This document shows positions 33,464 through 33,533 of a DNA stretch of 64,000 nucleotides, piece by piece. The notes under the pieces were generated by a model that was not told where the DNA came from, made no database searches, and saw nothing but the letters and a program-made list of their open reading frames with translations. Source of the DNA: Nannocystis sp. (GTDB lineage Bacteria > Myxococcota_A > Polyangia > Nannocystales > Nannocystaceae); contig NZ_JADJNN010000012.1 of NCBI RefSeq assembly GCF_016714285.1, positions 218,040-282,039 on the forward strand. The letters run 5' to 3'. Both the position numbers and the translations under genes were made by a program. Numbering within the stretch: position 1 is the stretch's first letter; each line of letters opens with the position of its first letter.

Positions 33464-33533
33464 GCGCGTGGTGCAGGCGCGTGGTGCAGGCGCGTGGTGC
33501 AGGCGCGTGGTTCAGGCGCGTGGTTCAGGCGCC
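33464..33533. repeat. 5 x 14-nt direct repeats (gcgcgtggtgcagg x3, gcgcgtggttcagg x2) 105-175 nt upstream of the MVP start
   Basis: Perfect head-to-tail array in the ASPIC-MVP intergenic region; a candidate regulator-binding array. Confidence 0.8.

Follow-up and report, generated by a model that had tools for sequence, protein, structure and literature searches.

Introduction

Bacterial minisatellites (VNTRs), such as the MIRU-VNTR and MLVA typing loci, are intergenic arrays of 10-100-bp units repeated head to tail, with copy number varying between strains, and are ascribed to slipped-strand mispairing. In a myxobacterium, Myxococcus xanthus, mutation-accumulation lines acquired 39 indels, of which 27 added or removed a single unit of a tandem repeat, one of these repeats having a 16-nt motif; the 27 indels, which were biased towards insertion (21:6), were attributed to strand slippage (PMC11069108). 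Copy-number variation of tandem repeats in M. tuberculosis promoters has been proposed by its authors to alter promoter strength and phenotype (PMC12817950). Repeats upstream of genes can also be protein-binding sites. Myxobacterial enhancer-binding proteins (EBPs) bind clustered short direct repeats, exemplified by the 8-bp half-sites of Nla28; such sites are degenerate, have variable spacers, occur at many promoters and are always accompanied by a sigma-54 -24/-12 promoter (PMC9765219). The contingency tracts of Neisseria, Haemophilus and Campylobacter usually consist of 1-7-nt units located between -35 and -10 or within an ORF, and switch at high frequency.

Here we describe a tandem array located directly upstream of a gene for a major vault protein (MVP) homologue, within a 64,000-nt stretch of DNA (the window; G+C = 71%). 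A literature search on bacterial MVP in myxobacteria found no paper. An earlier, sequence-only reading of the window had proposed that the array is a set of regulator-binding sites controlling the vault-like locus. Our analysis favours a different explanation: the array is quite likely a young, lineage-restricted minisatellite that arose by slippage and has no conserved sequence-specific function.

Structure of the array upstream of the MVP homologue

The array lies in the gap between two co-directional genes, with the following features:

30642..33359, minus strand: MVP homologue, 905 aa (Pfam MVP_shoulder 9.6e-13, Vault_3 4.1e-07)
33389..33426, minus strand: conserved single-copy core next to MVP, comprising the box TGCCATGCTGCGGCCCC (33389-33405) and GTTCCC (33421-33426), the latter 18 nt upstream of CATGCT
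33438-33458: 8-nt micro-repeat, CGGGCGCG x 2.6, overlapping the degenerate copy (TRF)
33451..33462: degenerate sixth copy of the unit, GCGCGGGCTTCG, on the MVP-proximal side of the array (repeat-family search; TRF on GCA_016717175.1 gives 6.3 copies)
33463-33532: 13-nt tandem array, 5.4 copies head to tail (TRF: period 13, 98% matches, score 126)
33528..33554, minus strand: 27-nt segment GCCGCACGTGACCCGGCTCCGGGCGCC separating the FG-GAP stop codon from the first full unit, within the 95 nt absent from contig L012 (see below)
33555..35447, minus strand: FG-GAP/ASPIC (UnbV) repeat protein gene, 630 aa, upstream of MVP (Pfam FG-GAP_3 1.7e-39, UnbV_ASPIC 1.3e-10; database gene call in GCA_016717175.1, L001 7913-9805)

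The MVP gene starts with an ATG at 33359, preceded by a Shine-Dalgarno sequence GGAGGAG at 33366-33372, and its N-terminus MAIENRQK is kept in relatives. The FG-GAP/ASPIC stop codon TGA lies at 33555-33557, leaving a gap of 195 nt to the MVP start, of which the array fills -104 to -173 from the ATG. On the plus strand the array reads GGCGCGTGGTGCA x3, GGCGCGTGGTTCA x2 and a partial GGCGC. In gene orientation (minus strand), this corresponds to (TGAACCACGCGCC)x2 followed by (TGCACCACGCGCC)x3, that is, two TGAACC units and three TGCACC units, the variants being arranged in blocks (AABBB). The MVP gene call of the sequence-only reading is borne out by the matches to MVP_shoulder and Vault_3, and the position that it gave for the array (-105 to -175 from the MVP start) was essentially right. 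Its description of five perfect 14-nt repeats was correct as to the presence of an array, but the unit is 13 nt and the copies are near-perfect, as indicated by TRF and by a self-match of 85% at period 13 versus 25% at period 14; the 14-mers of that description overlap by one G. Allowing up to 6 mismatches, neither the window nor the relatives contained another copy of the 27-nt segment GCCGCACGTGACCCGGCTCCGGGCGCC.

Chance falls far short of accounting for the array. Forty shuffles of the 64-kb window that preserved dinucleotide composition contained on average 0.1 arrays (period 8-60, at least 3 copies, at least 85% matches), compared with 12 observed, and the top score in any shuffle was 51, compared with 126 for the array upstream of MVP. 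Since its unit holds the palindromic tetramers GCGC and TGCA, a single strand of the array is able to fold back; the plus-strand DNA folds into a long imperfect hairpin (-22.2 kcal/mol, z = -3.7), and none of 200 shuffles was equally stable. Comparison of the gap with Rfam 15 yielded no family, the sole match, mir-B6, scored 27 bits (E = 0.16; gathering score 89) and reflects nothing more than hairpin potential. The array is non-coding, because no start codon in the MVP frame occurs upstream of 33401.

Copy number of the array within the species

Contig JADKFZ010000003.1 of the MAG GCA_016717175.1 (L001) matches the window at 99.55% identity, GCA_964267895.1 (L031) at 98.5-98.7%, and the metagenome contig Ga0073899_10020634 (L012) at 97.5% over 5,375 nt. 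Together with the window they represent four genomes of a single uncultured Myxococcota species, and named protein relatives are annotated as Myxococcales or Nannocystis. An identical 5.4-copy allele is present in the window, GCA_016717175.1 and GCA_964267895.1. L012 has the same FG-GAP-MVP gene order and an identical core promoter, but carries one unit, TGAACCACGCGC, fused to the FG-GAP stop codon in the context CCG TGAACCACGCGC GCCCGCG. It lacks 95 nt relative to the window, the largest of seven indels over the 5,375 aligned nt. L012 truly carries one unit, because there is a 12-nt exact match to the TGAACC variant, and its allele is not an assembly collapse, because its junction sequences do not occur in the window. 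The single unit lies at about the same distance from the core promoter as in the window.

Because the 5.4-copy allele is identical in three genomes differing by at most 1.5%, the array is not hypermutable on this timescale and is not a fast-switching contingency tract. Weak selection could account for its persistence. In the window, the proximal GCACCAC...CGAAGCCC stretch is similar to sequence in relatives with 91-94% MVP identity, in a region of low complexity, a hint that the long allele may be at least partly old. A metagenome scan with the FG-GAP-side flank CCGGAGCCGGGTCACGTGCGGC gave no match; this flank is missing from L012 and has a 1-nt deletion in L031.

Further differences between these genomes were observed outside the array. 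The window and GCA_016717175.1, which encode the same MVP protein, differ by 103 mismatches and 5 indels over 22.7 kb. The FG-GAP/ASPIC gene of GCA_964267895.1 contains many indels (301, 118 and 71 nt among them) and is called as a 240-aa fragment:

L031 15000-16300, corresponding to window 34200-35250: indel-rich FG-GAP/ASPIC stretch

This gene may be decaying in the GCA_964267895.1 strain, or the stretch may be poorly assembled.

Orthologous MVP loci in other species

Orthologous loci from other species were compared over a range of 94-60% MVP identity (L008 94%, L002 93%, L003 91%, L013 and L019 85%, L004 84%, L006 81%, and L014, L015 and L023 ~60%). The array upstream of MVP was absent in 10 of 10. 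In ~130 kb of relatives, the 13-mer was not found at up to 1 mismatch, with the exception of the single L012 unit. Weak repeats unrelated to the array occur between -80 and -160 upstream of MVP in several relatives. In L002 and L003 the repeat content of the MVP-upstream gap is slightly above that of other gaps, a difference that does not convince, given the small numbers and the greater length of these gaps.

In relatives, a TerB-domain gene lies next to MVP on its upstream side. Additional DNA separates the two in the window:

33473..39720: ~6.2-kb species-specific segment between TerB and MVP, with six genes encoding HD_4, GSHPx, three hypotheticals and FG-GAP (blastn synteny and gene tables)

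The array sits at the MVP-side edge of this segment, and homology with the 91% relative stops at ~33473, the side of the array nearer to MVP. A search for mobile-element ends (terminal direct or inverted repeats) at both edges found nothing convincing; the repeats that it returned were coding-repeat families of FG-GAP and neighbouring genes. The TerB-MVP spacer differs among species: it spans 6.2 kb with six genes in the window species, holds a different ~750-nt insert in the 91-94% relatives, and is only 200-270 nt in the 81-84% relatives. The corresponding intervals are:

L003 9124-10000: TerB-MVP spacer
L004 9728-10000: TerB-MVP spacer
L006 9798-10000: TerB-MVP spacer

These arrangements mark the spacer as an insertion hotspot.

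A conserved single-copy core between the array and MVP

The box TGCCATGCTGCGGCCCC is invariant in L002, L003, L004, L006, L008, L012 and L031 and near-invariant in L013 and L019, so that it is kept intact or nearly so down to 81% MVP identity; its form TGCCATGCT is recognisable in L023 (61% MVP identity). The core is a candidate sigma-70-type promoter with an extended -10. A promoter and terminator scan of 33200-33750 found nothing, at thresholds that are stringent for a 71% GC genome. In the window species, the MFE fold allows the box and Shine-Dalgarno regions to pair; the 5' arm of this pairing is not conserved in L002. The array lies at least 36 nt upstream of the putative -35, and the promoter elements are outside it. 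The real candidate for a control element of the MVP locus is the single-copy GTTCCC-N18-CATGCT / TGCCATGCTGCGGCCCC core, not the array. The one certain effect of the array is a lengthening of the spacer upstream of the MVP core promoter by ~65-95 bp.

Other tandem arrays in the window

About a dozen arrays occur in the window, six of them with periods that are not multiples of three. Those relevant to the comparison are:

20523..20582: 13-nt x 4.6 array filling the gcvT-gcvH gap, with a unit unrelated to that of the MVP array (TRF)
26677..26836: 82-nt tandem duplication at the OTCase-end/CPSase-start junction (TRF)
39609..39714: 55-nt x 2 duplication spanning the HD_4 gene 3' end and the gap that precedes the TerB stop, on the edge of the 6.2-kb segment away from MVP (TRF)
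42370..42431: 14-nt x 4.4 array between two IgGFc_binding genes (TRF)
44385..44429: 11-nt x 4.0 array in a co-directional intergenic gap (TRF)

Comparison with L003 and L008 showed that the arrays at 42370-42431 and 44385-44429 are absent in both, between conserved flanks; the gcvT-gcvH array is absent between conserved flanks in L008. L002 and L003 have a single OTCase/CPSase junction, at which the two genes share 1-4 nt. In total, where the DNA is syntenic with that of the 91-94% relatives, 4 of 4 arrays or duplications are insertions specific to the lineage, with conserved sequence on both sides. Tandem repeats make up 16% of the non-MVP intergenic DNA in the window, and 7 of all 12 gaps in the window species carry one; for the syntenic gaps of relatives the share is 0-7%. 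Assembly fragmentation is an unlikely cause of this excess, because one of the compared relatives is on a 780-kb contig.

Differences between genomes of the same species were found in several of these repeats. In L031, the array at 44385-44429 has exactly one extra unit, CCCCGCTTCAG; a 31-nt difference was seen in the 55-nt repeat region, and none in the array at 42370-42431. A 12-nt repeat differs by 8 units (96 nt) between same-species genomes, and the gcvT-gcvH array is 9 nt longer in GCA_016717175.1 than in the window and four other same-species contigs.

The sequence-only reading had cited two further arrays, upstream of gcvH and of a lipoprotein gene, as members of a recurring cis-element class or products of a common mutational process. 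Both arrays are real (20523-20582 and 42370-42431), but the gene at the latter is not a demonstrated lipoprotein and encodes an IgGFc_binding domain. A recurring cis-element class is contradicted by the units of the different arrays, which are unrelated: a search for a common motif found them no more alike than shuffled units. The fallback of a common mutational process gains support from the lineage-specific insertions and the whole-unit differences between strains.

Several other repeats were noted. The 82-nt duplication, which covers the OTCase end and the start of the CPSase small chain, opens a 73-nt gap where the genes of relatives overlap; since each gene end is still present in one intact copy, the duplication is tolerated. 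Units of 11 and 12 nt make the gcvT-gcvH array of GCA_016717175.1 irregular, an indication of residual long-read errors in that assembly or of a distinct strain. Just downstream of gcvH, repeats of 48 nt x 4.1 (95% matches) and 60 nt x 1.9 occupy 19721-19979; they fall within a database-called 381-aa ORF with no Pfam match, which may be a real ORF or non-coding repeat DNA. A 14-nt x 5.5 array, GGCCTGCGGGACAT, at 61217-61293 directly follows the stop (61203) of a plus-strand gene and forms a very stable hairpin with an adjacent inverted copy (DNA -29.7 kcal/mol, z = -6.5); a 12-nt x 3.2 array lies 30 nt beyond it, at 61322-61359. A G23 homopolymer at 51451-51473, just past the start (51482) of a minus-strand gene, would encode a proline run (C23), and this start overlaps the stop of the upstream gene as ATGA. 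The G23 run may be a hypermutable tract, or else an artefact of long-read assembly.

Proposed origin of the array

In the favoured explanation, slipped-strand mispairing or unequal recombination in the course of replication would have amplified, or conversely collapsed, 13 bp of the non-essential spacer that lies between the FG-GAP stop and the MVP promoter, with the fold-back of single-stranded array DNA favouring slippage. The AABBB block order is as expected from stepwise duplication of neighbouring units. This event would be part of a genome-wide tendency for unrelated short tandem duplications to accumulate where they break no gene, that is, in intergenic gaps, some of them including gene ends. 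Both the slippage mechanism and the neutrality of the array are what we infer from these comparisons.

Alternative explanations

The alternative that fares best, itself unlikely, is that the array tunes expression without a dedicated binding protein, its copy number altering MVP output through spacing, DNA structure or FG-GAP read-through. Such a VNTR would produce heritable strain-to-strain differences in MVP output. The two alleles in one species, the location directly between the co-directional FG-GAP gene and the core promoter, the hairpin or cruciform potential of the array and the M. tuberculosis promoter precedent (PMC12817950) are consistent with this idea. The promoter elements themselves, however, are each present once and lie outside the array, the transcript-sense RNA shows no significant structure (z = -1.7) and lacks a U-tract terminator, and the allele is unchanged in three genomes, with no sign of rapid switching. 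Moreover, like arrays fill gaps in unrelated operons (gcvT-gcvH), which points to a process rather than a purpose.

Very unlikely is the proposal of a regulator-binding array, in which each 13-bp unit is a putative site for an enhancer-binding protein or another repeat-recognising factor that activates or represses the MVP promoter. Its location, ~36 bp upstream of the putative -35 of the promoter-like conserved core, would suit such a role, one unit is kept at a similar position in the one-copy strain L012, and myxobacterial EBPs bind clustered short direct repeats. Against it, the motif occurs in no orthologous MVP locus and is not enriched elsewhere in the window, where 11 matches were found versus 10.0 expected (up to 2 mismatches), 5 of the 11 being the array itself. 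No sigma-54 promoter (TGGCACG-N4-TTGCW) was detected in 33360-33560 on either strand at up to 3 mismatches, and the gene listing contains no Sigma54_activat (enhancer-binding protein) gene within 10 kb on either side. The perfect identity of copies points to recent duplication rather than maintained sites. The 13-bp period is also out of phase with the 10.5-bp helical repeat of DNA, unlike OmpR/PhoB-type direct-repeat sites.

The unit dimer had no Myxococcota match in a collection of 185,579 species genomes (596 Gb) that does not include the source genome, a further point against a myxobacterial regulator site. It had two matches in these species-representative genomes, both from unrelated phyla, in a Kineosporiaceae MAG and a Spartobacteria MAG, with 2.5-3.5 copies:

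L010 3798-3830: unit-dimer match
L011 5583-5625: unit-dimer match

These arrays are probably convergent, because many short arrays exist in 596 Gb; the quasi-palindromic unit (GCGC...TGCA) may be intrinsically prone to duplication. The sequence-only reading of a regulator-binding array controlling the vault locus is not supported, given the absence of an array at orthologues, the 5.4 versus one copies and the lack of a sigma-54 promoter. Two of its own checks went against it: the strain comparison revealed a copy number that differs within the species (5.4 versus 1, in L012), and inspection of orthologues, where it had taken absence as contrary evidence, found no array upstream of any of the 10 examined.

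A related proposal is that the array multiplies an ancestral operator-like TGAACCACGCGC site, with copy number setting expression of the MVP homologue, and, more broadly, that the dense lineage-specific intergenic arrays (16% versus 0-7%) represent selected tuning of gene spacing and expression instead of mutational debris. We regard this as highly improbable. A single functional site in the retained unit is possible, since the one-copy strain keeps one unit at about the same promoter distance.

That the array or its copy number was made by an assembler or polisher is exceedingly improbable: the sources are metagenome-assembled genomes, and long-read noise is suggested by the gcvT-gcvH array of GCA_016717175.1, whose surplus of 9 nt is no multiple of 13, and by the G23 run at 51451, but the identical 5.4-copy array occurs in three independent sequences (window, GCA_016717175.1 and GCA_964267895.1), and its 70 nt are shorter than typical reads and the largest k-mers.

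Other candidate identities were considered and rejected. Iterons do not fit an array located between FG-GAP and MVP on a 621,778-nt chromosomal contig with no rep-like Pfam within 10 kb on either side. REP/BIME, MITE and CRISPR elements were rejected on the lack of other copies in the window and on units that are contiguous without spacers. A phase-variable contingency locus is at odds with an array at least 36 nt upstream of the putative -35 (of an inferred promoter) and outside any ORF with a start codon. An RNA-structure or terminator role was dismissed on the transcript-sense folding of the long allele (z = -1.7) and of one-copy L012 (z = 0.0), neither significant, and on the missing U-tract. 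Extension of MVP coding through the array was rejected on the missing start upstream of 33401, on an upstream ATG that is out of frame or stopped in relatives, and on L012, which is without the array.

Discussion

With the array read as a young minisatellite, the main consequence is a negative one: it should not be treated as a control element of bacterial MVP (vault-like) genes. More generally, perfect short arrays adjacent to genes in high-GC genomes should be compared between sister strains before they are called binding-site arrays. The young, strain-variable intergenic tandem duplications of this species could serve as strain-typing markers, and its repeat-rich intergenic DNA suggests a distinctive slippage or duplication regime.

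Among known systems, the array resembles the enhancer (UAS) clusters of myxobacterial sigma-54 EBPs such as Nla28 (PMC9765219) in having several short direct repeats upstream of a gene. In contrast to Nla28-type sites, its copies are perfect and contiguous, its motif is confined to one locus, and a sigma-54 promoter is lacking. As in contingency loci, slippage near a promoter could in principle alter expression, but the array has a 13-nt unit, sits farther upstream than the putative -35 and is unchanged in three genomes. With the M. tuberculosis promoter tandem repeats (PMC12817950) it shares a high-GC genome, a position immediately upstream of a gene and copy differences between close genomes, whereas the conserved promoter-like core of MVP is single-copy and outside the array.

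The closest resemblance is to bacterial VNTR loci. Like these, the array is intergenic, with head-to-tail units and strain-variable copy number; it is absent or different in related species, and its variant units are arranged in blocks. It combines contiguous copies beyond chance with copy polymorphism in one species and absence at orthologous sites. Unlike typed VNTR loci, it is known from two alleles (5.4 and 1), three genomes sharing one of them, in an uncultured member of the Myxococcota. The array belongs to an already known class, the bacterial VNTR/minisatellite, of which it is a new instance.
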